This document shows, in pieces, positions 11,247 to 51,300 of a stretch of 64,000 nt of DNA. Each line of letters starts with the position of its first letter. The stretch's first letter is position 1. The stretch lies in IMG/VR virus record IMGVR_UViG_3300043497_000005. The stretch is one strand, 5' to 3'. Under the pieces are notes generated by a model. The model saw nothing but the letters and a program-made list of their open reading frames with translations. It had not been told where the DNA came from and did no database searches. This DNA comes from a virus. The translations under genes were made by a program, and so were the position numbers.

Positions 11247-11717
11247 CTATACCGGCTCGGGCTCGTCGTTGTCGATCTCGAAGTCCTCCGGCTCGTCGTC
11301 GTTCACTGCCGGTGTGGCCTGCATGATCTTGAACATCACCTCGATGTCGAGGCCACGGCTGATCAACTCCCGCTTCACCTCATCGACGGTTTTGTAGACC
11401 GTGCTCTTCGGTTTGTCGTCCATTGTCTTCTGCTCGACCTGCAGCGGGATGATGCGGCCCAGCAATGAGACGAACGCGCGCAGGTCCTCCTGTGCGATCT
11501 TGCGCATGAAGCCGATCAGCTTGCCCTTGCCTTGGCCGTCCTGCCCCTCAAGCTCGGCTGCGATCATGATGGCTTCCTTGAGCAGCCTTGTGTGCTTGGC
11601 TGTGGCACCTCGTGGCTTGCCCGGGTTGGGGATGCCCGGTTTGCCGAAGCGTCCTCGCTTGTTGCCGCTCTTGTTGAGGGGCACGACGTTGCCGCCCATG
11701 TCCGTGGTGTCGGTCAT
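11247..11717 (-). CDS. terS: Terminase small subunit
   Basis: GRFGKPGIPNPGKPRG N-terminus; lies just upstream of terL. Confidence 0.7.
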   Translation of the reverse strand: MTDTTDMGGNVVPLNKSGNKRGRFGKPGIPNPGKPRGATAKHTRLLKEAIMIAAELEGQDGQGKGKLIGFMRKIAQEDLRAFVSLLGRIIPLQVEQKTMDDKPKSTVYKTVDEVKRELISRGLDIEVMFKIMQATPAVNDDEPEDFEIDNDEPEPV

Positions 11718-13594: not shown

Positions 13595-15181
13595 ATGACA
13601 ACCGAAACCAAAACACGCGGCCAGATCGTTGCCGCTGACGTCTCCGCGCTTCTCCGCGCTCGCAACCCGCTGATCTGGATCGTCACCCGCGAGGAAGCTC
13701 GCGTCGAGGCGCTGCTGATCGAGGCGGCTGCAGCCGCTGGCTACATCCCGCGCACGTGGGATGTGGCGCAGGGTTTCTTGGACATCGGCGGCAAGCAGCC
13801 GAACGATCTGCGCGATTCCACTGGCCCCGACGCTGCGCTCACCATCATCGGCGCTCGTGCCGAGGGCAAGGAGCGCGGCGTCTGGATCATGCGCGACCTG
13901 CCGGTGTGGCTCGATGGTGCCATCGGCTTCACCACGGTGCGCCAGATGCGCAACCTCGCTCGCTCACTCCCCGGTGCACCGCGTGAAGGTGCGCAGGCGA
14001 TCATCATCATCTCGCCGAAGAGCGAGGTGCCCGCCGAACTCGCCGGTCATGCCACGGTCATCGATTGGCCGATGCCTGATCGCGCCGAGATCGCAGCGAT
14101 CCTCGATGCCGCCATCGACGGTCTGCCCGACGACCTGCGCGAGAGCGCAGCGCCGAACGGTCAGCGTGATGCGGCCATCGATGCTGCGGTTGGTCTGTCA
14201 GGTGAAGAGGCACAGGCGTGCTACTCGCGCTCGCTGGTGCAGCTTCGCAAGATCGACCCGGCCCTCGTTGCTTCTGAGAAGAAGCGCGTGGTCAGCCGCG
14301 AGCGCGTGCTCGAATGGTACGATCCGATCAAGGGCGGCCTCGATGCCGTCGGTGGTCTGGATAACCTCAAGGGCTGGCTCAACACGAGGAAGAGCGCTTA
14401 CAGCCCGGCGGCTCGTGCCTACGGCCTACCCGCTCCGAAAGGCGCGATGCTGGTTGGCGTCCCGGGCTGCGGCAAGTCGCTCACCGCCAAGGCCATTGCC
14501 ACGGCGTGGGGCGTGCCGCTGCTCAAGGTCGACCTCGGCGCACTGAAGAGCAAGTTCGTCGGTGATTCCGAAGCGAACCTGCGCAAGGTGTTCAAGCTGG
14601 TCGAAGCCATCGGTCGCTGCGTTGTCTGGTTCGATGAGATCGAGAAGGCGCTGGAAGGTGCCACCTCGGGCTCGGCGGACGGCGGCGTGTCGGCTGATGC
14701 GCTCGGCGCGGTGCTGACGTGGATGCAGGAGCGACAGGGAGAGTCGTTCGTGATCGCCACGGCGAACAAGGCTGAAGGCTTGCCGCCCGAGCTTCTGCGC
14801 AAGGGACGGTTTGACGAGGTCTGGTTCATCGACCTGCCCACCACCAACGAGCGCGCTGCGGTTCTCTCTGCAGCGTTGCGCGAGCACGGTCGCGGCGATG
14901 TCGCGATCAATGCCGCTGCGGTTGCGAAAGTGACCGAGGGCTACACCGGCTCCGAGATCGCGGCGCTGGTGCCTGATGCACTGTTCGCTGCGTTCAACGA
15001 CGACGCTCGCGAGATCACCACCAAGGACCTGACCGACGCCGCCGCCACGGTGGTGCCGCTCAGCGTGACCGCTGCAGAGAAGATCACTGCTCTGCGCAAC
15101 TGGGCTGCGAGCCGCGCACGTGCGGCATCACTGCCCGAGACCATCGACACGGTGCGCAAGGTTCGCGCGCTCGATCTCTAA
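13595..15181 (+). CDS. AAA+ ATPase (Ycf46-like)
   Basis: GVPGCGKSL Walker A, VWFDEIEK Walker B, SRH PPELLRKGRFDE; degenerate N-terminal AAA module. Confidence 0.9.
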   Translation: MTTETKTRGQIVAADVSALLRARNPLIWIVTREEARVEALLIEAAAAAGYIPRTWDVAQGFLDIGGKQPNDLRDSTGPDAALTIIGARAEGKERGVWIMRDLPVWLDGAIGFTTVRQMRNLARSLPGAPREGAQAIIIISPKSEVPAELAGHATVIDWPMPDRAEIAAILDAAIDGLPDDLRESAAPNGQRDAAIDAAVGLSGEEAQACYSRSLVQLRKIDPALVASEKKRVVSRERVLEWYDPIKGGLDAVGGLDNLKGWLNTRKSAYSPAARAYGLPAPKGAMLVGVPGCGKSLTAKAIATAWGVPLLKVDLGALKSKFVGDSEANLRKVFKLVEAIGRCVVWFDEIEKALEGATSGSADGGVSADALGAVLTWMQERQGESFVIATANKAEGLPPELLRKGRFDEVWFIDLPTTNERAAVLSAALREHGRGDVAINAAAVAKVTEGYTGSEIAALVPDALFAAFNDDAREITTKDLTDAAATVVPLSVTAAEKITALRNWAASRARAASLPETIDTVRKVRALDL

Positions 15182-22364: not shown

Positions 22365-22587
22365 TCAACCTCCGCAATTTTCTCGTTTGCTCCTCAAGGC
22401 ACTCCGCTGCGAAGCGCTCCATCTTCATCAGCGCGTTGGCGTCGGCCTCGATCTCAGCCAGCTTGCGCTGCGCATCGAGCGAGCGCGCCCTGATCAGGTT
22501 GTACATGTCGCGCAGCCCCGCCACTAGCTCGCGCTGCGCCTTCAGTGGATCGAATTCGGTCATCATCGTCTCCATTGCTCGGTCCAT
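22354..22587 (-). CDS. Coiled-coil hypothetical protein
   Basis: C-terminal part of the track ORF; start uncertain. Confidence 0.5.
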   Translation of the reverse strand: MDRAMETMMTEFDPLKAQRELVAGLRDMYNLIRARSLDAQRKLAEIEADANALMKMERFAAECLEEQTRKLRRLNDG

Positions 22588-24086
22588 TGCGGGCTCTCCC
22601 TCACCTTGGATTTCGCCCACGCAATGGCGCGGCTCTTGATCCATGATGCGGTGCTCGGTCGCGGTGATAACATCTGCACGTGCTTCATGTCGTGCGACGG
22701 CCACGTTCCGATCCGCTCGCGATACTTGTTCGCCGCCCAGCCCTCCTTGTAGGCATGCTGGAACGCATAGCCCTTTAGCTCGGCAAAGAACATCGCCTTC
22801 TCGTTGTGCGTCATCTCGTCGGTGGGGCGCAGCGGCTTCTTCTTCGGTGGCTTCAACTCGCGAAGCTCGCCGGGCTCTGGCTCGATCTTGCTCACCACCT
22901 TGGCGACGGTCCCGCAGCCCGGGCAGCACGCCATCTTCGGCAGCTTCAGGTATCCGCAATTCGGGCATTCCTTCGGCAGCCGGATGTTGTCGGTGCGGTT
23001 GTCATTGCGCGGTGCCTTGCCGTCATGCAGCCCGACAAAGCTATCGTCAACGTCGGTCACCATGCCGAGCCGCAGGTGGTTGTCGCTGTGATCGAGGATC
23101 AGGCAGTCGTCTTTGCCGGGCGCGTTGCGCAGGCCACGCCCGACGATCTGGGTGAACAGCATATCGCTCTTGGTGGGCCTGCACATCGAGATGCAGCGAA
23201 CATCCCAGTCGATTCCGGTGGTCAGAGTCTCGACGTTCACCACCACCTTGAGCTTGCCATTGTGGAAGTCCCGCCGCAACGCCGCCCGCTCGGTGTCTTT
23301 GGTCTTGTGATCCTGATATCCGCAGGGGATTCCGGCGGCTTCGAACTGCAGCTTCAGCTTCATGGCGTGCGCGCGATCCACCGCGTAGCACAGCGTCGGT
23401 CGCCACTCCGACAGCTTCAGCCACGTCTCGACCGCATCGGCTACCAGCCTGCGCTCCTGCATCGCCAGCGATAGCTCATCGATCTGATAGTCGCCGCCCA
23501 CCGTGCGCACGTTGGACAGGTCCGGGTGCGATGGCGCGTAGACCCTGAACGGCGACAGGTTGCCCGCGTCGATCATCTGTTGGATCGATGCTGCCTTGTG
23601 ATAGTGATCGAACCACGCTCCCATGCCCTTGCGCCACGGCGTCGCACTCATTCCGATCAGCGGCACGTCGATCCATTCGGGCACCGGCACGTCTGGTGTG
23701 CCGAGCCACTTCTCGTAGAACGTAAACCATTGGTGACACTCATCGAGCAGCACCACGGCAACGTCTGGCACCGTGCGCCGCATCAGCGTTTGTACACTAG
23801 CGATCTGGATCGGCATGTCCCAATTCGACATGTGATGATCGGCTTGGATCACGCCGACATCGAGGATGCCACGACGCGCGAACATGCTCACGGTCTGGTC
23901 GATCAGCGAGATCGCGGGCACCGTGAACAGCACCTTCTTGTTTTTTTTCTGCGCGTTGGTCGTCAGCGCTGCAGCTAACTCGGTCTTGCCGTACCCTGTC
24001 GGAGCTTGCAGGCAGATGCGCCGCTTGCCGTCCCTCACCGCCTCACGCAGCGCCTGCAGTGCGGCTTCCTGATCATCACGTAGCAT
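22563..24086 (-). CDS. Superfamily II DEAD/DEAH-like helicase with Zn ribbon
   Basis: APTGYGKT, LDECH, SATP, QIVGRGLR, CPNC..CPGC. Confidence 0.92.
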   Translation of the reverse strand: MLRDDQEAALQALREAVRDGKRRICLQAPTGYGKTELAAALTTNAQKKNKKVLFTVPAISLIDQTVSMFARRGILDVGVIQADHHMSNWDMPIQIASVQTLMRRTVPDVAVVLLDECHQWFTFYEKWLGTPDVPVPEWIDVPLIGMSATPWRKGMGAWFDHYHKAASIQQMIDAGNLSPFRVYAPSHPDLSNVRTVGGDYQIDELSLAMQERRLVADAVETWLKLSEWRPTLCYAVDRAHAMKLKLQFEAAGIPCGYQDHKTKDTERAALRRDFHNGKLKVVVNVETLTTGIDWDVRCISMCRPTKSDMLFTQIVGRGLRNAPGKDDCLILDHSDNHLRLGMVTDVDDSFVGLHDGKAPRNDNRTDNIRLPKECPNCGYLKLPKMACCPGCGTVAKVVSKIEPEPGELRELKPPKKKPLRPTDEMTHNEKAMFFAELKGYAFQHAYKEGWAANKYRERIGTWPSHDMKHVQMLSPRPSTASWIKSRAIAWAKSKVRESPQWTEQWRR

Positions 24087-24342
24087 CGGCCATCACCTCC
24101 GCTGCGCTGATCGTGATCGTGGAGACATCCTGCACGCCGCGCCCGATCTCCTCCGGAAGCGCGCCCACCATCCCCAATAGGTTGGCCTGCCGTATCCAAT
24201 CCACCGCCGTCTCACAGACGATCAGATCGCCCTTCAATGCGACGCCGATGGAATCGATATCGAGCATCATCGCGCGAGCCCGAGCCGATGCAGCGCGGAG
24301 CGCAGCGAGGAGGAATTCCTTGTGGGTGGCTTCCTCCATCAC
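24076..24342 (-). CDS. Hypothetical protein
   Basis: 88-aa coupled ORF. Confidence 0.55.
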   Translation of the reverse strand: MMEEATHKEFLLAALRAASARARAMMLDIDSIGVALKGDLIVCETAVDWIRQANLLGMVGALPEEIGRGVQDVSTITISAAEVMADAT

Positions 24343-24536
24343 CTGCGCCCTTTCAGGTTAGGGCCGAGCTTGTTCTGCTTCAGCCATTCCTGTTCAACCT
24401 TTCGCGCTCGCTCATCGAGCCCGTCGCGTGGCTTGTCGCTGATGGTGCGCCCGTTATCGAGCACCGCCCCCGGTTTGTATTTCTCCTCGATCTCCCTGAA
24501 TTTTCTCGCCTTCGTCCAGTTCATCTTGCCCGTCAT
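24339..24536 (-). CDS. Hypothetical protein
   Basis: AAGGAGCAA RBS before MTGKMNW... Confidence 0.55.
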   Translation of the reverse strand: MTGKMNWTKARKFREIEEKYKPGAVLDNGRTISDKPRDGLDERARKVEQEWLKQNKLGPNLKGRR

Positions 24537-25216
24537 CGGTTGCTCCTTTTTGGTCATGTCTCTCCCACTTTCTTCCAGAGATACCCAGTGAGGGTGATGC
24601 TCCCCGCCTTGGCGGACCGGTTCGAAAAACCCGGCGGAATACTCGTTCGTCTTCGTCTGGGTCTCGGGGCGTAAAGTGGACAAACCGCACGGCCACGCAG
24701 CCGCTTTCCCACCCGAGGGGCAGTGCGACCTTCATCGGCTTCTGTGGGGAGGGACCACCGTGCAGCACCCACCGGCTCGATAAAGATCGGCCTCGGAACG
24801 CTTGCTGTGGATGGGGGTTGATGATAAGCGGGAAATTGCTTAGGTTTCCGCACTGGTCATCGACGCCTTGCTCGCAACAAGTATCGTCGGACTTTCGAGA
24901 GAGGCCACCGTTTGCTGCGGTGGCCTTTTCGATTCGTAGGCTGATCTCCTCGCTCGAAAGAGTCAAAACGTTTCGGTGCGCCAGCCGACGTTAGCTGCAT
25001 CACGAAAAATTACCGGGCACATTTGATCGATGCGGTTGACCACGATATCGCGGCATCGCTTCGTGCTTCACACCAAATATTGAATCTCTCCTGAAAATAT
25101 CTCCCACGGTGGGAGATGAAATGTTCCGAGCAGGTTGCTCTTGATCGCTCGCGCGTGAACCGGCTATGGGTGATTCGCGTTAGATGCAGCGCAACAACCA
25201 ATGGAGCAAAGACAGT

Positions 25217-25468
25217 ATGACTGACCAAAACAAGGACGCCAACCACAGCCTCGACCGCCGCCGGGAAGAGCGGGCACTCAACGATCTGGCACAGGACAGC
25301 GTCTCTCGCTTCACCGACCTGACCTCTGTCGGCATGGAAGTGATGCAGAAAAATATCGAATGGCAATCCGAGGTCGCGCGCTATTGGGCCGACAGCCTCA
25401 ACGTCGCCCATAGCTCGATGAACCAGATCATCCAGACGGTGCAGCAACAGCGCAAGCGTGTTGCCTAA
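25217..25468 (+). CDS. Hypothetical helical protein
   Basis: GGAGCAA RBS; lone rightward gene ending at a hairpin. Confidence 0.5.
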   Translation: MTDQNKDANHSLDRRREERALNDLAQDSVSRFTDLTSVGMEVMQKNIEWQSEVARYWADSLNVAHSSMNQIIQTVQQQRKRVA

Positions 25469-25482
25469 CCGGTTGTGATGAG

Positions 25483-25529
25483 AGGCCGGTCACCTGAAGC
25501 CGCCCCCGGCCCTTGGTGACCGGCCTTTT
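25483..25529. terminator. Hairpin between convergent genes
   Basis: AGGCCGGTCACC...GGTGACCGGCCT followed by TTT. Confidence 0.55.
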
Positions 25530-26065
25530 CATTTCTGCGCAGTGAACAGCGGCGTATGCCGCCACGCCAGTTGCGGGTTGAGCCACGCGCATTGAAAACT
25601 CCACAACGCGGCTGCATCACTCTCGTCGGTGGTGGTCGCGGGCCATCCCATTTGCTGGCAGCGCTCCAGCGTCAGCGGCTTGGCGATCTTCGCTTTCATA
25701 TTCTGGCCGATGAAGTGTGCTCGCACTTGGCTTACTGATGCTTGGCGAAGATCGTAGCGGTCGTAGCACCACTCCTCCAGATGCTCGGCGAGGCCGAACA
25801 GCAACCGCGTGGTGCTAATATTGGTCTTGCCGCCCATGAACGATGGCACCGCCGGGCTCTCGTACACGATCAGGTCAGGGCTCATGCGATGGTGCTTCAC
25901 CATCGCCTCAAGCCACTTCCTGAATTCACGATAGGTCTCGGCGTGCGATGCGCCGCCCTTGCTGAACCGCACGTGCCCACATAGCGGGATCGAGCCGGGC
26001 ACGCCAGCGGCCCAGCCTGTTGTCGTAGCTAAATCGAGCGCGAGCACGCGACCAGTAAAGGTCAC
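25529..26065 (-). CDS. RuvC-like Holliday junction resolvase
   Basis: LALDLATTTGWA, IVYESP, DESDAAA catalytic pattern. Confidence 0.8.
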   Translation of the reverse strand: MTFTGRVLALDLATTTGWAAGVPGSIPLCGHVRFSKGGASHAETYREFRKWLEAMVKHHRMSPDLIVYESPAVPSFMGGKTNISTTRLLFGLAEHLEEWCYDRYDLRQASVSQVRAHFIGQNMKAKIAKPLTLERCQQMGWPATTTDESDAAALWSFQCAWLNPQLAWRHTPLFTAQK

Positions 26066-26247
26066 CGCCCGCGCCTGCTGCGTTTTTTGACCGTAACAAC
26101 CACCCGCTTCGCCTTGCCGGTCTTCGGCTTGACGTTGACGGTACGCGTTGCCTTGTCGATCTTTGTCTTGTTTTTCTCCACGCGCTTTTCTCGCAGTGCG
26201 CGAAGCTCCATCTCTTTGGGTCCTACTTTATCGTGTGACATCATCAT
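26062..26247 (-). CDS. Small basic protein
   Basis: AAGGAGCAA RBS; K/R-rich. Confidence 0.55.
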   Translation of the reverse strand: MMMSHDKVGPKEMELRALREKRVEKNKTKIDKATRTVNVKPKTGKAKRVVVTVKKRSRRGR

Positions 26248-26461
26248 TGCTCCTTGGTGGATGCAGGTCAGGCCGCAGCCTCTCGCGGTCGATAGAGAAC
26301 AGCCTCTCGATCTTTATAACATGATGCGATGGAATACGATGCCAGCGCGTCAGTGTCGGCAGCGCGAGCTTGAGCGCCTTGGCCAAGCGATAGCGTGAGC
26401 CAGCCGCCGCCACCGCCAGCCGCAGACCCTCATCCCGAATTCGTTTTTTGCTCGTTGCCAT
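26228..26461 (-). CDS. Cro/YdaS-like HTH regulator
   Basis: AGSRYRLAKAL...RWHRIPSHHVIKIE...LRPDL; divergent from the RAMP-like gene. Confidence 0.75.
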   Translation of the reverse strand: MATSKKRIRDEGLRLAVAAAGSRYRLAKALKLALPTLTRWHRIPSHHVIKIERLFSIDRERLRPDLHPPRSNDDVTR

Positions 26462-26606
26462 GCGCGGGTAGCCTACAGGGAGACGACATCGGGATCACAC
26501 ACCCCCCGCAATTTATTTTTCACTGTCCTCTTGCATATAGTTGTTATTTATCTTACTGGGGGTTTGACCGTCAGCGTGGTGCTGGCCGGGCAAGGAGCAA
26601 ACTAAA

Positions 26607-27431
26607 ATGGCTGTGAAGAAAAAAGACGACACCGATCAGGCGATCATGATCAAGAAGATCGAGCCTGACATTGTACGTTGCGCGATCCTCGGTGCTTCGC
26701 CGATGATCATGCATCGGTTCGCGTTCAAGGCGTGGCAAGAATTGCTGTTGCCTGCCGCCAAGAAGAACGCGGCAGCGAAGGCGGAGAATCTAAAGCACGA
26801 TCCGCTCAACGAATTTCGTGAGTGCTGCTACCGCAACCGCTCGGAAGAAGAACCGACGGCGATCCACTATCCGGCTGGCGCGTTCTCGAAGGCACTGGCA
26901 GCGGCAGCGCTCGACCTGCCCGGAGCAACCAAGGCGCAAATCCTGCGGCTTGTCGGCGTCGTCAGCACACAGATCAATATCTATGGCACGCCCACGCTGG
27001 GCATGGATATGGTGCGATCCAGTGACATGGCCAGAACACCGGACGTGCGCACGCGCGCATATCTGCCGGAATGGTGCTGCACGGTGGACATCAGCTACAT
27101 CAAGTCGCTGATCGGGAAAGAGCAGATCATCAACCTGCTTGATGCTGCCGGTCTCATCGTCGGCATCGGCGACTACCGCCCGCAGAAGGGCGGACAGTAC
27201 GGTCGCTTCGAGGTAGTGAGCCCGGACAACAAGGACTTCGTGCGTATCATGAAGCAACAGGCGCGCATAGCGCAGGAAGCTGCGCTGGAGACCCCTACGT
27301 TCTTCAACGAGGATTCCGCTGAGCTATATCAGTGGTTCAATGAGGAGACCGAGCGTCGTGAGAAAACCGTGCCCTCGTCCAAGGGTAACGGCAAACCGAA
27401 GCCGCAGCCGACACAGGTGCCGGTGCAGTAA
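26607..27431 (+). CDS. RAMP/Cas7-like protein (putative guide-RNA-binding effector)
   Basis: N-terminal strand ILGASPMIMH and C-terminal Gly-rich loop GLIVGIGDYRPQKGGQYGRFEV resemble RAMP (Csm3/Cas7) hallmarks; lies upstream of the repeat array. Confidence 0.7.
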   Translation: MAVKKKDDTDQAIMIKKIEPDIVRCAILGASPMIMHRFAFKAWQELLLPAAKKNAAAKAENLKHDPLNEFRECCYRNRSEEEPTAIHYPAGAFSKALAAAALDLPGATKAQILRLVGVVSTQINIYGTPTLGMDMVRSSDMARTPDVRTRAYLPEWCCTVDISYIKSLIGKEQIINLLDAAGLIVGIGDYRPQKGGQYGRFEVVSPDNKDFVRIMKQQARIAQEAALETPTFFNEDSAELYQWFNEETERREKTVPSSKGNGKPKPQPTQVPVQ

Positions 27432-27439
27432 ACGAAAGC

Positions 27440-27474
27440 GGCGGCGATCAATTATGGTCGCCGCCATTTTTTTT
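27440..27474 (+). terminator. Intrinsic terminator between the RAMP-like gene and its partner
   Basis: GGCGGCGATCA-ATTA-TGGTCGCCGCC, then A and T8. Confidence 0.65.
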
Positions 27475-27489
27475 GAAAGGAGCGAGACA

Positions 27490-28044
27490 GTGAGCAGTAG
27501 ATCAGACAAACGCCAAAGAGAACTCGATGCCGCGATCCGCGCATGCGAGGATGAAACAGGCCATGCGATACCGAAGGTGGTGGTGGCGGCAGCGCAGGAC
27601 CCAACGCACCCAAGCTATGAGGTGCTCACCCTCGAATTTAATTGGAACGTTCAAGAGGCTGCACAAGCACACTGGGAAGATCGAGCGCGCGAGCTTATCC
27701 GCGAGGTGCGTGTGATGGTGGTTTACGGTGACGCCAAGATCGCGACGCCGGTTTACGTCAGCGATCCGCGCGTTCCCGAGTCGTCGTTTATCCGCACAGT
27801 AAGAATCGCGCGAAGCGGACCAACCAAAAGGGCGGTGCTGCAGGCGGAGTGCGACCGGATCGCTTCGGCGATCAACCGCGCGATAGGTCTGGCTGTTGTG
27901 TTCGATCTAGAACAGCGTTTCGAAAACGCGCTTGCCGAGATCATGATGGCGGCCAACGAGCTAGGCAGCCGCGACGACGATGGCGACGACGATGACGGTG
28001 GCAGCGCATCACCGCGCGGGCCGGAGCCATCACCGGCACCGTGA
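27490..28044 (+). CDS. Partner protein of the RAMP-like gene
   Basis: GTG start with AAGGAG RBS; PKVVVAAAQDPTHP...FNWN...AAQAHW..RARELI; ends 8 nt before the array. Confidence 0.7.
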   Translation: MSSRSDKRQRELDAAIRACEDETGHAIPKVVVAAAQDPTHPSYEVLTLEFNWNVQEAAQAHWEDRARELIREVRVMVVYGDAKIATPVYVSDPRVPESSFIRTVRIARSGPTKRAVLQAECDRIASAINRAIGLAVVFDLEQRFENALAEIMMAANELGSRDDDGDDDDGGSASPRGPEPSPAP

Positions 28045-28052
28045 GCTTGCTT

Positions 28053-29570
28053 GGCATGGCAGGCACGGTGAGGTGAGGTACGTTGAGGCGCGGCTGTGCG
28101 CGGTCTGGTTGGGCTCGGTTAGGTCAGGCAGGCAAGGCCCGGCGAGTTGTTGTGAGTTATGATATGGCAAGTCGCGGCGTGGCAGGCGCGGTTAGGCCGG
28201 GCGAGGTTAGGTGCGTCGCGGCAGGGTATGGCGGGCCGAGGCCGGGCTGGGCAGGACTGGTGAGGTCGGGCCGGGATTGGTCAGGCAGGGCGCGGCGAGG
28301 CGCGGCGTGTTGTGTCCGATTAGGTTTGGGCAAGGCAGGCATGGTGTGGCGCGTTTGGCGATGGCGAGTTGAGGCTAGTCCGGTTGAGACGAGGCATGTC
28401 GCGGCGAGGCAGGCGAGGTAGTCTGGCCACGTCTAGCTCGGTCACGGCGAGGCTTGGCAGGCGCGGTGTGTCAGGTCAGGTCATGTCATGGCCGGGTAGG
28501 TCAAGGCGCGGCCCGGTAAGTCATGGCGTGGCAGGCAAGGCATGGTGTGATCGTGTGGGGTGAGATCAGGTGCGACGAGGCAAGGCAGGCGCGGTTAGGC
28601 GGCGAGGGGCACGGCTGGGCACGGCGAGGCAAGGTATGGCAGGCATGGCTCGGTTTCGGCGGCGCTCGGTGTTGCACGGTCAGGCCGGGCGTGGCGTGGC
28701 ATGGCAGGCACGTTATGGCTGGGCAAGGTAGGTCATTGGTGTGGCAGGCGACGTCTGGCGCGGGCGGCTAGTTGTGGTCGGGTCAGGCAAGGCATGGCAG
28801 GCGAGGTACGGCAAGGTGTGTTCGTGCGAGGCAAGGTCGGGCAGGCTGGGCAAGGCGCGTCGGCGCTTGGTGAGGCAGTGTGCGGCGTGGCTGGGCAAGG
28901 TTAGGCAGGCGAGGTGCGGCGAGGCCGGATATGGCACGGTCCGGCTTGGTGGGGTTTGGCGCGGCAGGCGCGGCAAGGCGAGCCCGGTCAGGCCGGGGTC
29001 GGCTCTGGCGAGGCACGGCATGGCGAGGCAGGCTGGGCGGGCTTCGGTTTGGCAAGGCATGGCTGGTTGCGGTTAGCTCTGTTGCGGCGTGACGTGGCAG
29101 GCTGGGCTTGGCTTGACGCGGTCGGGTTCGTTGCGGTGGGGCAGGTTGTGGTCAGGCGTGGCAGGCGAGGCGTGTTTTGGTCCGGCAGGATAAGGCTAGG
29201 TCTGGCAAGGCAGGCTGGGCTTGGTATGGCGCAGCGAGGCGGGGCACGATGGGGCAAGGCACGGCAGGCGCGGACTGGCTCAGTATGGCTAGGCGCGGCT
29301 GGGTAAGGCGCAGCGAGGCAGGCAAGTTAGGGTCTGTCGCGGCGAGGCAAGGACGGCCCGGGCGTGGCGAGGATTGGCACGGCAGGCAAGGTTGGGCGTG
29401 GCGAGGTCTGGCATGTAGCGGCTAGGTGAGCCACGGCAGGCTAGGCACGCACAGGTGACGTGAGGCATGGCGAGACGAGGATGGGTTGGGTGACGCGAGG
29501 CTAGGTCAGGCAGGCTGGGCTCGGTAGGGTCGTGCATGTTCGGGTTGGTCACGTCGCGGAGTGGCAGGCA
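28053..29570 (+). ncRNA. GGY-NN pentamer array, 25 units delimited by GGCA(GG); candidate guide-RNA array
   Basis: Strict 5-nt periodicity; 26 GGCAGG delimiters; 21 of 25 units have length 5n+4; terminator follows. Confidence 0.85.
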
Positions 29571-29575
29571 AAAGG

Positions 29576-29604
29576 AAACCGGGAGAATTACTCTCCCGGT
29601 TTTT
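29576..29604 (+). terminator. Terminator closing the array
   Basis: AAACCGGGAGA-ATTAC-TCTCCCGGTTTTT; overlaps the end of the convergent ORF. Confidence 0.75.
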
Positions 29605-29773
29605 CCTTGCTGGTTAGTTCGTGGTATCGAATGCACCACGTGTCGATATCGCTCTGCGTGTAGCCGCGCGAGTTCATCTCTTTCCAGAATTCCTCTCGCG
29701 TCATCCGTTTGTCGCCGTACTGACCGAGCAGGTACGCCAGCGATTCGTATTTGGTGAGCGGCTTGGTCTTCAT
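29588..29773 (-). CDS. Hypothetical protein (gapped near-match to array unit 24)
   Basis: MKTKPLTKYESLAY...YTQSDIDTWCIRYH...; ATGA overlap. Confidence 0.65.
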   Translation of the reverse strand: MKTKPLTKYESLAYLLGQYGDKRMTREEFWKEMNSRGYTQSDIDTWCIRYHELTSKEKPGE

Positions 29774-30420
29774 GGCTGCGGCCTGTGCTCCCGGCAGAAC
29801 CACCGACCCGGCTTGCCCTTCAACAGACTGACACCGTAACCCCAGCTAGCGTCGCGACAGCACACCTCGCAGAAATTGGAATCGGGCCAACCGGGGCCGA
29901 TCAGGTAGCGCTTGGTTTTCACGCCGCCACCGATGACGTCATTGACCGGCACCACGCGGCACTCAGTGCGGTTGCGCTCGTTGGTGCGCGTGATCGGCCA
30001 CATCTCCTCGCCGGTTTCCCAGAACCACTTCTTCAGCGCCTGCATGTCCATCACGTAGACGTTGAGGCCAACCTCGCTCTTCGGTGTCGAGAACGCATAG
30101 ATCAGGATGTCGGCGACCGAGGTGTACATCCAGCCTTGTCGCTCGTAGCCCGGGACCGTACAGGTCCACGTCTCCAGCGCGAAGGCGGTGTATCCCGTCG
30201 TCCCGTCGGTGGGCCAGTGCACGATCTTCTCCTCGACAGTCTTCTGCCCGCCCGGCGTTTCTACCAGCGTGTCGACGTAGCGCTGGGTTGGGTCGTTGTT
30301 GTCGAGAAAGCGATACCTGTCTGGAAAATATCGGTCATAGAAAAATGGCTTCAGGATCATGTCGCGCTGCCTGACCTGCCAAGCATTCTTGATGTCGAAA
30401 GTGTTGTCGATGTCGCTCAT
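29770..30420 (-). CDS. Putative PD-(D/E)xK nuclease-like protein with C-terminal Cys motif
   Basis: YVDTLV...VEEK, ADILIY; CEVC...WFCREH. Confidence 0.55.
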   Translation of the reverse strand: MSDIDNTFDIKNAWQVRQRDMILKPFFYDRYFPDRYRFLDNNDPTQRYVDTLVETPGGQKTVEEKIVHWPTDGTTGYTAFALETWTCTVPGYERQGWMYTSVADILIYAFSTPKSEVGLNVYVMDMQALKKWFWETGEEMWPITRTNERNRTECRVVPVNDVIGGGVKTKRYLIGPGWPDSNFCEVCCRDASWGYGVSLLKGKPGRWFCREHRPQP

Positions 30421-31421
30421 CCTGCAGCCGCCTCTGTCCCGGCTTCAACGAACAGGTTGGTGAAGTCAGAACGCTCCTCACGCTGGTTGGCCTCGCCATA
30501 TGGCGGATAAGAACCGGCGCGGATGATCTCGTAGGATTTTTCCGGCTTCTCCGAGTGCTTACCACGCGGTGCCTCGAAGTGCGTCGGGATGCTGGCTGCC
30601 GCCGGACGTGTGGTGGTTTCACCGCGCGTGGCGAATATCATGTGCTCGGTGCTGTTGCGATAGTAGCTGCCGAGCCCGAACGGCGGCGGCTTGATCCACG
30701 TGATGACGGTGCGGTGCTGAAAGCCCCAATGCTCGACCAGCTTGCACGCCTCGCTCATGAAGTTGTTGGTCGTCCAGCAATACATCTGACAGCCTTCTTC
30801 TTCATCGGCCCACGCCGCAACGTCAAGCTCACGCAGTTGTTCGATGGTCTGCATCGCATAGCCCGGCTTTGCGCGTGCAGCGATGGACAACCAATCGTAA
30901 TCCCAAGCCGGATCGATGACGATAGTGCGGAATTTTCCGACGCGGGGCACGAGGTTCAGGATACGATATTCATCGGCCTGTACCCTCGTGGTGCGCAGAA
31001 TACTCGACACCTCGTTGCGCTGAAGCGTCGGGCAGATCGTGCCATCCTTCACCAACCGCTTGAAAGTAACTTCATCGAGCCGGGCGATCTTGTCGATGGT
31101 GTTGTAGTCGGGTGGAAGCATCTTGGCCAAATGGGAGTCAATGACTCCCATTTGGGAATCGCACCACGTCGCAATCCGCATGAACATGCTGGCAACACGA
31201 CGGTGGAATTTCAGATCACTATCGAGCACATTGATCCACTGCCCGTGCTCCAGACCAGCCTTAGCCCTATGCAGATCGCGGCCAAGCTCGATGAACCCAG
31301 TGACGGCGGTTTGCCTAATAACATCCCATTGATCGTTGAGCCGCTTCGCCCACTGTCGTCTCGTCAGTTGTAATTCGCCCGGCTTGATGACAGTCAATTC
31401 CCGGCTTGGCTTCTTAGGCAT
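30417..31421 (-). CDS. MT-A70-family adenine methyltransferase with N-terminal DNA-binding-like domain
   Basis: IVIDPAW, YCWTTN, WGF..TVITWIK, G.Y.RNSTEH, HSEKPE. Confidence 0.85.
   Translation of the reverse strand: MPKKPSRELTVIKPGELQLTRRQWAKRLNDQWDVIRQTAVTGFIELGRDLHRAKAGLEHGQWINVLDSDLKFHRRVASMFMRIATWCDSQMGVIDSHLAKMLPPDYNTIDKIARLDEVTFKRLVKDGTICPTLQRNEVSSILRTTRVQADEYRILNLVPRVGKFRTIVIDPAWDYDWLSIAARAKPGYAMQTIEQLRELDVAAWADEEEGCQMYCWTTNNFMSEACKLVEHWGFQHRTVITWIKPPPFGLGSYYRNSTEHMIFATRGETTTRPAAASIPTHFEAPRGKHSEKPEKSYEIIRAGSYPPYGEANQREERSDFTNLFVEAGTEAAAG
31127..31155. promoter_or_regulatory. 29-bp perfect palindrome, copy 2 (inside the methylase gene)
   Basis: CCAAATGGGAGTCA-A-TGACTCCCATTTGG. Confidence 0.65.
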
Positions 31422-31899
31422 GCTGTTTCCTTACTGCGAGCGGGTTGGTGTACATGCGGAAGTGCGTCGGGCAGTACGACGACATGCTGCCGTTATAGTC
31501 GTAGCCGCGCGGCTTGCCGCAGACCTTCTGCAGCTTCCACTTGCCGCTGCGCTCCGGCAGGATGGCCTTGCAGCCGTTCGACCCGTTGTCGAGATACTCA
31601 ACGCCGGGGGTCTTGCTGATGGCGTCGACCTCGGTGACGGTCAGGGGAGTTCGGGGTGGCATCTTGGTCACGTTGTTGCTCCTTGGTGGTGGTGGCTTGG
31701 GTGGTGGCTTGAAGGTCATCAGCGAGGTTGTGGTCCTCCTCTTGAATGCCTCTCTAGGCAGGCGATGCTTGCGCCCGGCAATGGCATTGCGGGAGACGGC
31801 GTAGCCAGCCTGTTGCAGGCCATTGGCCACGTACGACAACGAACCGCCCTCATCCCATAGACGGACGAGGAGGGCGTCGGCCTCGTCGGTCCATATCAT
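31414..31899 (-). CDS. gcrA: GcrA-family regulator
   Basis: MIWTDE...LVRLWDEG.S...VSRNAIAGRKHRL plus C-terminal CKAIL...CG...YCPTH. Confidence 0.85.
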   Translation of the reverse strand: MIWTDEADALLVRLWDEGGSLSYVANGLQQAGYAVSRNAIAGRKHRLPREAFKRRTTTSLMTFKPPPKPPPPRSNNVTKMPPRTPLTVTEVDAISKTPGVEYLDNGSNGCKAILPERSGKWKLQKVCGKPRGYDYNGSMSSYCPTHFRMYTNPLAVRKQHA

Positions 31900-32132
31900 G
31901 GCTTGCGCTTTCGCTTGCTTGAGAAGATGTCCGGGCGAACCTGCTCCGGTGTCATCTCGATTAGCGGGGCGATCTCCATCACGTGGTGCGCTGGCACACG
32001 ATTCCACGCCGCCACGTTCTGGTGCGTTACGCCGAGGTGTCGTGCGATCACCGCAGCGAACCCCGGCTTGGAGAAGATCAGCCGCATCACGTGGTCGCGC
32101 TCCTTGTCACGCCTCGGGCTGGACCGCTTCAT
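31896..32132 (-). CDS. Second Cro/YdaS-like HTH regulator
   Basis: IARHLGVTHQNVAAWNRVPAHHV...VRPDIF. Confidence 0.75.
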   Translation of the reverse strand: MKRSSPRRDKERDHVMRLIFSKPGFAAVIARHLGVTHQNVAAWNRVPAHHVMEIAPLIEMTPEQVRPDIFSSKRKRKP

Positions 32133-32432
32133 CACCTCTCCTCGCATAAAGCGTCGGGCCTCGACACTGGTCGATTCCATTTGTTTACTCCACATTGTAC
32201 GAGAACAACATCATTTGAATCTATCCCATTGATTTCTGGATTTCTACCCTCTAAAGACAGAGTCGGTCTCCCGGGGGAAAGCCAATACCCCTTGTGCCCC
32301 ACCTCCGGAAGGACCGAAGGCTCCGCGTTGCTCCACCGTAAAAGGTGAACGACGCGGGGCCAACCGGGGCGGACAGAACCTAGTGTGTTTGCACTGTCCG
32401 CCCCGTTTAACGTTCTTCAAGGAGCAAGACGT

Positions 32433-33362
32433 ATGCAGGTTATCCCTTGGGATGGCCAGCCCATCACGCAGCCGGGCTGGTATTCGAACATCCCCATTGA
32501 GCGCTATCATTCGGCTGGCATCTGCGACGGTCCTGCGGTGTCGTCGTCCAACTTGCGCAGATGCTGGACGCACAGCCCGGCGCACATGAACGCTGAGTGG
32601 GCCGAGAACCCCGAAGCCGAGCCGCGCACCGCGACGCGCGCGATGATTCTGGGTCAGGCCGCGCACCATCTCTTCCTCGGCGAAGATGGCTTCTCGGCGA
32701 AGTTCATCGCACAACCAGCGGAATATCCCGACAAGAAGACCGGGCTGAAAAAGCCGTGGCACAACGGCAGCGATTACTGCAAGGCGTGGAACGACAAGTT
32801 CTCTGATCGCGTCATCGTCACGCTGAAGGAATTGCAGGCGATCATCGAGATGGCGAAATCGATGGCGCTCGAACCGCTGGTCAAGGAAGGGCTGTTGACC
32901 GGCCACGTTGAATGCTCTGGCTTCATCAAGGATCAGGAGACCGGGCTGTGGATCAAGGTGCGGCCCGACGTGATCCCGACCGACGGCGGAGACTTCGCTG
33001 ACCTCAAGACCGCAGCCGAGGTGACGACGCCAGCGCTGATGTCATCGATCCGCAGCTACGCGTATCACATGCAGGGCGCGCTGATCTGGGAGGTGTGCGA
33101 GGTGCTCGGCCAGCCGTTCGAATCGTTCGTGCTGATGTTCATCGAGACCACCAGACCGTTCTGCGCCCGCACAGCACCGATGGACGACAAGGACCTTGCG
33201 TTCGGCAGACAACAGAACCGCCTGATGCTGCGCAAGATCAGGGAGTGCATGGAGCTAAAGCATTTCCCGGGACCGGGTGAAGGCGATCTGTCGCCGATGC
33301 CGCTGTCGAACGACGAGCGCCAGCGCATCGAGACCCGGCTGAAGGTGGAAGGGCTGATATGA
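32433..33362 (+). CDS. recE: RecE/ExoVIII-like exonuclease (DUF3799)
   Basis: VSSSNL, LGQAAH, KVRPD, DLKT, YHMQGA. Confidence 0.85.
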   Translation: MQVIPWDGQPITQPGWYSNIPIERYHSAGICDGPAVSSSNLRRCWTHSPAHMNAEWAENPEAEPRTATRAMILGQAAHHLFLGEDGFSAKFIAQPAEYPDKKTGLKKPWHNGSDYCKAWNDKFSDRVIVTLKELQAIIEMAKSMALEPLVKEGLLTGHVECSGFIKDQETGLWIKVRPDVIPTDGGDFADLKTAAEVTTPALMSSIRSYAYHMQGALIWEVCEVLGQPFESFVLMFIETTRPFCARTAPMDDKDLAFGRQQNRLMLRKIRECMELKHFPGPGEGDLSPMPLSNDERQRIETRLKVEGLI

Positions 33363-34804
33363 AGAAGGACAAGCCGGTCGCTCATTACCCGACGGCGCTC
33401 AACAGCGGCAGCCACCCGAGGCTCAACTTCAAGGGGCTCGACATCAAGCAGAACGGCGACGACTTCATCATCGAGAAGTCAGATGATCCAAACGCGATGC
33501 CGAAGCTGGCAAAGGAGATAGTCGAGCGGATCGATGCTGGAGCGTTCGCTTCGCTCGGCGAGATGATCAACCCGTTTGAAAGCACCGCAAAGGTGGATCA
33601 CCCGACCGACAAGCGAAACAAAGTGCCGGGGCTCACGATGCCGAGCGGGATGACGCCGCCGAAACCGCATCGCTTCGGTCCCGGCTACGACAACAGTACG
33701 CCGGTCCAGACCATGCGCGCCACGAGGAACGACACCGACCTCAAGCGCACGCTGTTAAACATCGTGAACAAGAAAGCTGGATCGCCACCACCGCAATACG
33801 ACGACGACCGCCCGCTGATCGACCTGTTGCACGAGGCGACCTTCACCGAGCCCGACGGCCTGCAGTGGATCGAGAAGAAGTACGATCTGCGCATGCTGTT
33901 GCGGAAGGCGCACTGCTTCACCCTCGACAAGGAGACCTCGGCGATGGTTGGCGATTTCTCGCTCGCCATAGCCAGCGATCTGGAGAGCGCGCGCCGGATG
34001 GCGATCCCACCGTTTCCGGTGACGTGGATCGAGATCAACAACATCGCGCGGCTGGATCGCCTCAAGGAACGCGGCGTCAAGCTGACCGCGCAGGCGGCAG
34101 GCGAGACCGAGGCAGGCCCGCCGGTCGAGCGCGTTGGCTGGCTGATTCATCCCGAGGCGGAGGGTGGCCATTATGCGACCTACGTCGCCTTGGTGGGTGC
34201 TGGGGTGATGGTTGCGCCACTGTCCTATTTCTGGTGCACCGGACCCACCAATGGAGAAGAGCTTCAGACGATGCTGTTGCGGGAGTCGGACATCGATGTC
34301 GCCTTTGTCGAGCGGCTCACGTTCGGCGTCAACAATTCTGGCGTCTACGCATCTGACGCCCGCCCGTCACCGACGCCGCTGCACACAGAGCGGATGCAAA
34401 ACATGGATGAGGCGAGCTATTCTGCCAACGTCAGGGAATTGATGACGGAGATCGGCGGCGAGCTTCGTCACGTCTGGGGGTTCCTGATCGCGCTCGGTGC
34501 CGGTCAGCTTGGCATTGAAGCGAAGTACAGCGATCAGCCGAAGCCACAGAGCACGCCGCCGACGATGAAGAACGGCAAGCCGTTGCTGCCGCTGGAGCAC
34601 AAGGTGCTGCACCTGCATCTGGCGAGAAAGATGACGCCAGACAAGGTGGTGGCGCGGATGACGACGCACCACAAGCACCGCTGGCATGAGGTGCGCGGAC
34701 ATTTCCGCTTGCTGAAGAGCGGCAGGCGCGTGCCGATTAAACCACACGCGCGCGGCGACAAGCGTCTCGGCGTGATCGAGAAGACCTACCGCGTCGAGCG
34801 GTAG
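33359..34804 (+). CDS. Large hypothetical protein
   Basis: 481-aa ORF; C-terminal HEVRGHFR...PHARGD. Confidence 0.7.
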   Translation: MKKDKPVAHYPTALNSGSHPRLNFKGLDIKQNGDDFIIEKSDDPNAMPKLAKEIVERIDAGAFASLGEMINPFESTAKVDHPTDKRNKVPGLTMPSGMTPPKPHRFGPGYDNSTPVQTMRATRNDTDLKRTLLNIVNKKAGSPPPQYDDDRPLIDLLHEATFTEPDGLQWIEKKYDLRMLLRKAHCFTLDKETSAMVGDFSLAIASDLESARRMAIPPFPVTWIEINNIARLDRLKERGVKLTAQAAGETEAGPPVERVGWLIHPEAEGGHYATYVALVGAGVMVAPLSYFWCTGPTNGEELQTMLLRESDIDVAFVERLTFGVNNSGVYASDARPSPTPLHTERMQNMDEASYSANVRELMTEIGGELRHVWGFLIALGAGQLGIEAKYSDQPKPQSTPPTMKNGKPLLPLEHKVLHLHLARKMTPDKVVARMTTHHKHRWHEVRGHFRLLKSGRRVPIKPHARGDKRLGVIEKTYRVER

Positions 34805-48397: not shown

Positions 48398-51300
48398 TAT
48401 GCCGCTCCGATGTCGGAATAAGAACTCCAGCGTGCCTCGCGCACTTCGCGGTCCGCCTGTCTGCGCATCGACGCGCGCGCGAACTGCACCTCGTTGTCGT
48501 TGACCCTCATGTTGAGGTTGACCCGTTGATCGCGCGTGACCGGCGTGTCGTCGGTTGGCTGCACGGGCGGCATCTCCGCCGTCGGCGCTGTCGGTGCTGC
48601 CTTGTTGTTTCTGGCTTCGCGCTCCGCTCTCATTTGATCTGGCGTCAACCGGTTATCGAGACCGCGCTGCACCGCCGCTCTCTCTTCAGCCGTTCCTGCA
48701 TAGGCACCGAGACCTTCACCAACGATGGCGCGGTTGCCCGTGATGCCCATGTGGATTTTAGCCGGATCGCTCATGTAGCGCGCGCCAGTACCACCAGCGC
48801 CGCGTCGCGCCGCTTCCTCGATCACCTTGAGACGACGCGGATCATTCAGCCCCAGCACCTTGCCGGTCTTCGGATCGACAATGTCAACATCGGCGGCGCG
48901 GCCTTTATCGTGACGATGCGACCCGGTGTGACCGTGCGCTCCCTCCATGCGTTGACCGCCAGAGGTGACGCGAATCTTGACGCCAGAGGCTTCAGCTGCG
49001 CCCTCCAGCGCATCTCTCAGTTGCGGATCGAGCTTACCCTTGCGAATACCGGCAACACGCCCCTGTGCTTCTTCGACTAAGTTGCCGCCACCGCCTTCCA
49101 ACTGCGTGGTCGTCTCAGCCGGTGCCGCCGTTGCTCCTCCGTCAGCTACCCTGCCGCGCTCCGCACCGACGCCACGGTTGCCGCCGATGCCAGCGAAGTT
49201 GCCGATGCCGGTGTTGCGCGCGCCGTACCACGATCCCCAGCCATGCTTGCTGGCGTGCTTGAGCGCAAAGTCGATGGTGTCCTTTTCGTTGGCCGGATCG
49301 CGCGGGTCTTTGCCGGTCGCCTTCTGATAGGCGTTGCCGAGGCCGCCGCCCATGTAGAGTTGGAAGGCACCCCAGCTATCCTCGCGCCCGTTGTAGCTGC
49401 CCTTGCCTGTTCGCTTCACAGACGACTGAAACGTGCCGAGCCCTTCCGACTTCGCGACCGCCACCGCCGTGTCTGGATCGATGTTGTATTTTTTCGCCGT
49501 CTCACGGATGTGCTGCTCCATGCCGCGCGGATCGCCGCCCTTGCCAACGCGGCCACGCGCAGCACCGACGCCGGGTGTGCCGCCGCCGCCACCTCCGCCA
49601 CCTTCGATCTTGCTGCCGCCACCGCCGCCATACGATGAGCCGCCACCGTAGCCAGCCGCAGGACCAGCGCGCTCGAATGGACCGCCGCCCCCTCCGCCAC
49701 CGCCACCACCTCCGCCACCATAGCCGCCGCCGGAGCCACGGAAATTCGCTGGCAAGAACTTGGAATCAGAACTGCCGCCATACATGGCGTTCTGGTAGCC
49801 ACCGCCCGGCAGAGCACCGCGACCAATGCCGATGCCGGGTCCGCCCTCACCGCGTATGCCGCCACTGCCGGGAGTGCCGCGCTGCTTCAGGTCTTCGCGG
49901 CTGTAGCCGTAGGCCTTTGAAGCAACCCACGCCGCTGCATCCTTCGCGCTACTGGAGAACGACGAGCGCTGGTACAGGTTCTGGTTCGGTCCGGGCGGCG
50001 ACGGCGGCGTGGTCAGCTTCTTCTCAAGCTCCTCCTGTCGCCGCTTATGCTCTTCAAGCTCGAACTGTCCGCTCACGCCGGGTGCGGCTTCGTTGGAGAA
50101 GTGCGGTATCCGCAGCCCGTGCGGACCGACGAGGCTGAAGTTCGGTGCCTCGCCCTTGAAGCCGCCAGTGATATATTTCACCCAACTGCCAACGTATTTG
50201 AGCGTCTCGCCGAGCCCCTTCAGCTTTGCGGTAAAGATGATGATGGCTTCAGGCGCGCCGATGTTGACCAGAAATTCGCCGAACGTCTTCGACAATTCCT
50301 TGAGATTCACCATCAGGCCCTCGATGCCACCGGACGCGGTCTTGTCGATGGCGATGCCATCCTTGACAGCACGGCTTTGCTCGGCAGCTTCCTTCAGCAA
50401 TCTGATGCGCTCGCCGATCAAGCCGTTGTTGTCGGCTTCCATGATCTTGCGCAGGAACAGCGCCTCTCTGGCGTCGATCTTTTCAAGCCTGCGATAGGCA
50501 GCTTCCTTGTCGCGCACCTTTCTGAAATTATCGATCACGAACGCGGTGACGTCGCCGCCGCGCTTCTTGATGTTTTCGATCTGCTCCTGCCACTGGCTTT
50601 CCGGCATGCCGAACACGTCGCCGACCCTACCGGAGGTGAGGCTCTGCATCGTGTTCTTCAACAGCACTGCGCCCTTTGAGGTGTCGCCCATCTGATCGGT
50701 GGCGATCTCAAGCAGCGCTCCCATCCGCGCCAGACCGTTCTCTCCGCCGTAGCCGATCTGCTTGGCCACCTCGGCTAGCTCCGAGCCGTTGGCGATCAGG
50801 TCCTTGATGTCGAGGTTGCCGCTGCGCGTTAGCTCGCCGATCATCTCCATCGTGCGCGCGAACTCGCTCGCGGGGATGTTGAGGTTGCGCATCAGATCGG
50901 AGGTGAGCTTGGCAAGGTTGCCGGGATCGACGTCCATGCCCTTGGCGACCATGTTGAGCCTTGGTGCCAGATCGGCGGCTTCTTTCGCCGTGATCTTCAG
51001 GCCGTTGCGCAGCCGCTCCATTCCCTCATAGGTCTTGTCCCAATCGGTCGACGTCGCTCTCGCCGTCTCGGTGAGCCTGTCCTTGACCTCGCCGATGGCA
51101 GCCGCCGTCATCCGGGTCCTGTTCTGCAACAGCGCCATCTTCTTTTCGGTGTCGGCGAAATTGAGGTAGGCGCGGCGCGCGAGATCGGCAGCGGTAGCGA
51201 CGCTGGCGTAGCGCGTCACCATCGATTGAAGCTCGTCGCCTAGCTCTCGAACAAGCGAGGTCTGCCGCTTCTTCGCGATAGCGTCCTTTGCCGCTGCATC

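Follow-up and report, generated by a model that had tools for sequence, protein, structure and literature searches.

The 64,000-nucleotide stretch of viral DNA analyzed here, IMG/VR record IMGVR_UViG_3300043497_000005 and called the window in the following, contains at positions 28061 to 29565 what is very probably the guide-RNA (vrRNA) array of a phage VIPR system; the probability of this reading is put at about 0.93. It is preferred because a Vipr-family gene and a partner gene lie upstream on the same strand, because the array is made of GGY-NN units, because targets for two of its guides are found in sister phages, and because no site in the window itself reaches 80% agreement. The window is derived from a phage, encoding a helicase, a RuvC-like resolvase, an MT-A70 methylase, and a GcrA homologue.

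VIPR is a CRISPR-like silencer first described in 2026, which consists of a lone Cas7-like Vipr protein and of vrRNAs with 9-16 GGY/NN repeats. Out of each three target bases, two pair with the NN bases and one is skipped, mostly a wobble base; targets are rival mobile elements, rival VIPR systems included, and self-targeting is reported to be absent. Several array layouts occur, among them "staggered arrays" (fig. S18), in which neighboring vrRNAs overlap by 1 nt and which are described at the level of the legend, without confirmation by RNA sequencing there (bioRxiv 10.64898/2026.04.26.720920). The elements of the present locus are the following.

26607 to 27431, plus strand: vipr, coding for a Cas7-like RAMP protein of 274 amino acids (assigned from PDB sequence match, AlphaFold2 model, and Foldseek).
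27440 to 27475, plus strand: hairpin resembling an intrinsic terminator, with the hairpin proper at 27440-27465 followed by T8, between vipr and the partner gene.
27490 to 28044, plus strand: partner gene (candidate vap), 184 amino acids with an acidic tail, start at GTG 27490.
28061 to 29565, plus strand: putative staggered vrRNA array, 25 units of GGY-NN pentamers with 4-nt GGC-A-GGC steps between the units.
29576 to 29602, no single strand: hairpin terminator with a 12-pair stem and T runs on both strands, closing the array and the convergent leftward operon.

Period, punctuation, and composition of the array

A 5-nt period is strong throughout the array, with an autocorrelation identity of 0.49 at lag 5 and a signal at its multiples as well, compared with about 0.24 off-phase. 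An extra peak at lag 15 is absent and stops occur in every frame, so that a protein-coding function of the array was rejected. Tokenization of positions 28041-29580 by dynamic programming yielded 282 five-mers, 28 four-mers, and 3 six-mers. The pentamers, about 274 between 28061 and 29560, have the form NN-G-(G/T)-(C/T): G occupies position 3 in 94% of them, G (78%) and T (14%) are the main bases of position 4, and C (61%) and T (34%) those of position 5, while positions 1 and 2 are nearly free of information (0.09 and 0.02 bits, respectively). At the DNA level, the grammar of VIPR guides, a conserved GGY alternating with a variable NN over about 9-16 repeats per guide, is thereby present.

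The motif GGCAGGC is found 25 times within the array. The 25 4-nt steps, which always follow GGC and read AGGC except for one AGGA, divide the array into 25 units spanning 6-16 pentamers; at each GGC-A-GGC step, where 4 nt stand for 5, the end of one unit marks the start of the next, as is characteristic of a staggered array. Twenty of the 25 units are regular, with 8-16 pentamers each as compared with the 9-16 repeats per guide published for the type II VIPR of SUSP1 and Pseudomonas fulva. Internal phase slips are located in units 6, 10, 11, 12, and 16, and these five may have decayed. The division into 25 units and the decoded readings of units 15, 20, and 22 proposed in the preliminary description of this DNA were reproduced exactly, and its numbering of unit 24 agrees as well.

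The array starts nine bases past the stop codon of the upstream plus-strand gene, and a promoter for it was not found. Rfam and tRNA scans detected neither an RNA family nor a tRNA in the window. The alternation of identical repeats and spacers that typifies CRISPR arrays is absent; Tandem Repeats Finder and the tokenization reveal the 5-nt unit only. In its layout, the locus resembles the staggered VIPR of fig. S18 (10.64898/2026.04.26.720920), since a Vipr RAMP gene, one accessory gene, and GGY-NN repeats are carried by a phage, the guides abut with a one-base register change, and the one-base skip falls on the wobble position. It differs from that description in having 25 units, two of which are guides directed against the genes flanking the cassette in the allelic form found in sister phages. 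In SUSP1, every guide is an individual RNA about 100 nt long that carries a conserved 3' tail and a pseudoknot, whereas the array described here is devoid of such a tail, the 4-nt step being its sole punctuation.

The NN dinucleotides had been thought to resemble the first two positions of codons, and a chi-square comparison across codon phases had been proposed. With dinucleotides from 46 long ORFs, which cover 48 kb of the window, as reference, chi-square was 57.4 against sense codon positions 1-2, the best fit of all tested, compared with 337.9 against positions 2-3, 221.8 against positions 3-1, 139-303 against the three antisense phases, 107 against bulk dinucleotides, and 81 against uniform frequencies; log-likelihoods give an identical ranking. 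The proposal was thus borne out, positions 1-2 being clearly the best phase, though the fit is not exact (p 7e-7), with an excess of TG, TA, and GA and a deficit of GG, CC, CT, and CA. A reading of NN as codon positions 1-2, with the wobble base passed over, is also what the VIPR rule prescribes (10.64898/2026.04.26.720920). The sense reading is favored over the antisense one in 17 of 21 units. The remaining compositional remarks of the preliminary description also hold: GA is the commonest NN (41 of 274 pentamers), 55% of the pentamers have A or T as their second N, and TG is over-represented (20 observed versus 8.2 expected from codon positions 1-2) and often unit-initial, opening 5 of the 25 units (binomial p 0.03). 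TG and TA might be in excess through a preference of the guides for conserved Trp, Cys, and Tyr positions, which are present in both identified targets.

The vipr gene and its partner

In a phmmer search of PDB, the best match of the vipr product was the Vipr protein of SUSP1, 36pp_D (E 0.0035), which was also the sole match of a profile built from 35 homologues (E 2.7e-7). The SUSP1 residues R138, D177, W178, and R179, which hold the GGY bases according to the published structures (10.64898/2026.04.26.720927), are aligned by the profile with R150, D189, Y190, and R191 of the vipr product. R150, D189, and R191 are invariant among the 35 homologues, and Y190 is replaced by W in the family consensus. 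As judged from this alignment, the GGY-holding residues of SUSP1 Vipr appear to be kept. The vipr product belongs to the same protein family as the Vipr proteins of the type II systems in Escherichia phage SUSP1 and a Pseudomonas fulva prophage, with sequence similarity to SUSP1 Vipr confined to about 55 residues; as in those systems, rival mobile elements are targeted and all self sites stay below 80% NN.

The AlphaFold2 model of the vipr product has a pLDDT of 81.6, and its best Foldseek matches in PDB are all Cmr4/Csm3/Cas7 RAMPs (E 4e-5 to 1e-3). By Foldseek, the modeled protein shares its fold with the backbone of class 1 CRISPR complexes, in which Cas7, Csm3, or Cmr4 is arranged on the crRNA, and the published VIPR structures resemble these complexes in having one protomer per RNA period and a thumb that flips bases out. 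Unlike class 1 CRISPR, the system has no repeat-spacer array, its period is 5 nt with three bases hidden instead of 6 nt with one hidden, and target recognition follows a gapped 2-of-3 code.

The vipr family comprises 642 members in a large protein collection and 307 in IMG/VR. Among 80 loci taken from the latter, a same-strand GGY-NN array adjoins the vipr homologue in 65, mostly downstream; several of the 15 loci without an array are contigs that end soon past the gene. When seven consecutive GGY-NN pentamers were used as a pattern, at least 120 IMG/VR contigs matched, many of them with arrays of 200-1500 bp. In other IMG/VR phages (L026, 6311-7012; L097, 885-2429, minus strand), more than 100 NNGGC pentamers follow one another in phase with hardly any punctuation.

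Between vipr and the partner gene, the hairpin has an 11-pair stem, 8 of whose pairs are GC, with a run of T behind it, and is predicted to act as a terminator. The partner gene most likely starts at GTG 27490, with a ribosome site of the AGGAG type upstream. In 59 of the 80 loci, a tblastn homologue of it lies directly 3' of the vipr homologue and in the same orientation, which argues for an accessory gene of this vipr clade. Its product matches phrog_15946, a family of unknown function, and none of the named vap families (vap1-6), so that the locus is assigned to none of the VIPR types I-VII. The model of the partner product is confident (pLDDT 88), and no match to Pfam, PDB sequences, or PDB folds was obtained; in this it is unlike the SUSP1 and Pseudomonas fulva comparison set, matching nothing solved. 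A pattern search of IMG/VR returned no match either, the query having been an over-long ORF from 27340 with an untranslated N-terminal part.

Targets in sister phages and position of the cassette

Targets were scored by the published one-base-skip rule with the 80% NN threshold of the preprint. Megablast of positions 24000-34000 against 50,697 phage records gave no match, and outside relatives were obtained through homology to the RuvC-like protein. Two of these relatives are parts of larger genomes: L205 belongs to the complete 85,350-bp phage G001, and L203 to the 76.7-kb phage G002. Both phages are collinear with the window, with about 65-80% nucleotide identity across aligned segments of 27-33 kb. 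The guides and sites concerned are the following.

28061 to 28129, plus strand: unit 1, 13 NN, 11 of which agree in the RuvC-like gene of L204, L205, L215, L209, and G001.
29438 to 29511, plus strand: unit 24, 14 NN, 12 of which agree in the homologue of a small ORF in L204, L205, L215, L210, and G001.
25593 to 25630, minus strand: the window's own mismatched copy of the unit-1 target, 8 of 13 NN, in the RuvC-like gene 25529-26065 (phrog_159, RuvC-like resolvase).
29622 to 29662, minus strand: the window's own mismatched copy of the unit-24 target, 10 of 14 NN, in frame in ORF 29588-29803.
23155 to 23177, plus strand: site matched by a guide of G001 (G001 about 49060-49100), 8 of 8 NN, antisense in the helicase gene 22563-24086.

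Two of the 25 units thus have a target at or above the threshold (85% and 86% NN) when one base is skipped, the skipped base being the wobble base. The matches of units 1 and 24 are in frame, at sites homologous to the window's own near-matches, and their scores in G001 were reached by none of 200 shuffled guides each. In the complete G001 genome, only these two stand out among the 21 units scanned, the five slipped units not having been scanned whole; in the whole contigs of ten further relatives it is again only units 1 and 24. A perfect target (100% NN) was found for none of the units, units 1 and 24 included.

The window itself was scanned with every unit at skips 0-3, and no self-target of at least 80% NN was found within its 64 kb, the best sites reaching 71% and 62%. 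The unit-24 site is reached by none of 200 shuffled guide sets in the window; the unit-1 site is the best one in the window for that unit, with a score that about 5% of shuffled guides attain. Since both own sites lie below the threshold of the preprint, the window conforms to the absence of self-targeting in VIPR. All four mismatches of unit 24 to the own gene fall on a GA of the guide, and so do both mismatches to the G001 allele; GA may merely represent common Asp and Glu codons at these places, or it may be a tolerated filler.

By these results, two expectations of the preliminary description are supported: the units point at outside genes, as targets of at least 80% NN in sister phages are available for units 1 and 24, and there is no convincing self-match, the highest scores within the window (10 of 14 and 8 of 13) each being below 80%. 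The other 23 of the 25 units stand without a target.

For these 23 orphan units, no target of at least 80% NN was found in any sequence searched, namely, the 2.9 Mb of fetched loci, the whole genomes of G001 and G002, the whole contigs of ten relatives (G003, G004, and G006-G013; 339 kb), and 10 loci from bacterial genomes. The scans of larger collections used exact patterns only. Exact or spaced patterns of units 20, 3, 5, and 4 gave no genuine target in IMG/VR, the single match (L300) being attributed to chance, as only the 9 forced NN of the 14 agree and an internal stop codon is present; patterns of units 24 and 17 gave none in metagenomes, unit 24 having no exact match there. This negative result is weak because exact scans would miss the known targets of units 1 and 24, each of which has two mismatches. 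With up to 3 mismatches allowed, no match was obtained for units 20, 5, and 3 in five sister records each, nor for unit 24 in 401 genomes from the class to which a Casimicrobiaceae MAG referred to below belongs, a scan that served as positive control for host prophages. Three kinds of near-misses were judged to be due to chance: unit 20 agrees at 8 of 10 NN with a Loktanella prophage gene (an 807-aa ORF, presumably primase-like) and at 7 of 10 in G002, unit 15 agrees at 8 of 11 in L125, and skip-3 matches occur in L217 and L226, which are not arrays.

Targeting is also observed in the opposite direction. G001 carries a staggered array of its own at 49.0-49.9 kb with the same GGC-A-GGC junction, and the base skipped by its guide at 23155-23177 of the window is the wobble position of the helicase gene. 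The helicase copy of G001 itself has 5 of 8 NN, a six-base block being substituted at exactly that site.

The skip was evaluated more widely in a pooled test, in which 10-NN windows were slid along 593 array runs (from the window and L001-L260) over 7.3 million positions on both strands. At a one-base skip, 30 windows reached at least 9 of 10 NN versus 9 for shuffled guides, the corresponding numbers at skips 0, 2, and 3 being 9 versus 4, 5 versus 5, and 8 versus 1; the one-base skip is the sole skip clearly enriched over shuffled guides. Two of the matches obtained are between other phages. A guide at L124:11070-11130 agrees with the vipr gene of another VIPR phage (L129:10379-10411) at 9 of 10 NN in two consecutive 10-NN windows. 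L207, a close relative, has a short array at the end of its locus (11500-11565), which agrees with L282 (G004), 14754-14792, minus strand, at 9 of 10 in four consecutive windows.

In G001, the segments homologous to window positions 26149-26280 and 29603-29798 adjoin each other. Because these flanks are adjacent there, the cassette of about 3.3 kb, comprising vipr, the partner gene, and the array, is considered an insert in the leftward operon, in opposite orientation to it. Its immediate neighbors are the window's own copies of the two genes whose sister alleles are targeted by units 1 and 24.

Proposed mode of action and alternative readings

The array would most likely be transcribed together with the partner gene, giving one RNA that ends at the hairpin 29576-29602. 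By analogy with other VIPR systems, for which the 2026 preprints describe the mechanism, one Vipr protomer would bind each repeat and hide the GGY bases, the NN bases would be presented so as to pair with double-stranded DNA at two bases out of three, and binding of the guide would silence transcription of the target. Each 4-nt GGC-A-GGC step would break the 5-nt register, so that one Vipr filament would end and the next would start; about 25 separate guides would result, corresponding to the "staggered arrays with 1-nt overlap" of fig. S18. The phage would use these guides in co-infection for shutting down conserved genes of competing phages, and its own copies would escape because they differ at 4-5 NN.

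Since the only two G001 matches of the 21 scanned units are alleles of the genes that flank the cassette, and the own flanking copies are mismatched, a connection by design between the cassette and its targets may tentatively be proposed, albeit as a rather unlikely one: the rival's alleles of the cassette neighbors would be silenced in mixed infection. If this were the case, the only recombinants spared would be those that take the resistant flanks, and hence the cassette too, which would amount to a silencing-based analogue of marker exclusion by homing endonucleases. Alternatively, the linkage of flanks and targets could stem from new guides arising from neighboring genes.

The array might also be an acquired memory of the CRISPR kind, to which units would be added from invaders by an adaptation step. 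The many different units would agree with such an origin, as would the fact that both units with identified targets point at rival phages and that no guide is common to this array and any other fetched array. This origin is nevertheless considered very improbable, because the cassette consists of two genes only, the VIPR papers describe no adaptation step (bioRxiv 10.64898/2026.04.26.720920), and a 5-nt guide for a 3-nt target period cannot arise by simple insertion of target DNA. The preliminary description had regarded the array as possibly being a record of competitor or host genes. The competitor part is supported by the rival-phage targets of units 1 and 24, while a target in a host gene was not found; as to the word record, an acquisition step is evident neither here nor in the VIPR papers.

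Solo vrRNAs that redirect the Vipr protein of a rival have been described on satellites (bioRxiv 10.64898/2026.10.15.759431), and some or all of the units could likewise be decoys or anti-VIPR guides instead of guides for the phage's own Vipr; the protein of G001, the VIPR array of which has the same junction grammar, might load such RNAs. This is scarcely credible, however, for an array that is located directly 3' of its own vipr and partner genes and in which units 1 and 24 target ordinary G001 phage genes and not decoy sites. A structural or decayed pentanucleotide repeat devoid of guide function, such as G-quadruplex DNA, a microsatellite remnant, or a G-rich RNA acting as a protein sponge, would account for the G-rich strand with GG every 5 nt, but was dropped as practically excluded, given that variation is limited to two of five positions, that the 65 loci mentioned above combine such an array with a Vipr-family gene, and that phase-specific, codon-like NN and two matches which no shuffled guide reaches would be unexpected.

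As a vrRNA array, the locus is a large and clean example of the staggered type from an uncultured phage, with 25 guides, 4-nt punctuation, and no 3' tail. The known picture of the VIPR mechanism is left unchanged by it. It goes slightly beyond the VIPR papers in the size and clean punctuation of the array, in the mutual targeting among collinear sister phages, and in the location of the cassette, which is flanked by the phage's own, mismatched versions of the two targets identified. Within the sister-phage set, guides are aimed mutually, that is, between the window and G001 in both directions, from L207 at G004, and from L124 at the vipr gene of another phage. These phages would provide a natural system in which the delimitation of guides without a tail, the number of mismatches that protects the own allele, and the co-travel of guides and resistant alleles could be studied.

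As concerns the host, the closest relative of the RuvC-like protein in the genome collection is encoded on L270 (DASYSP010000135.1), a 58.5-kb contig of a Casimicrobiaceae MAG, with 63% identity, and for this reason the GcrA and methylase genes do not settle the host. The RuvC-like matches that follow L270 are alphaproteobacterial, with about 30% identity. The MT-A70 adenine methylase gene overlaps the GcrA-family gene (30417-32007, minus strand), in the leftward operon that ends at the terminator of the array.
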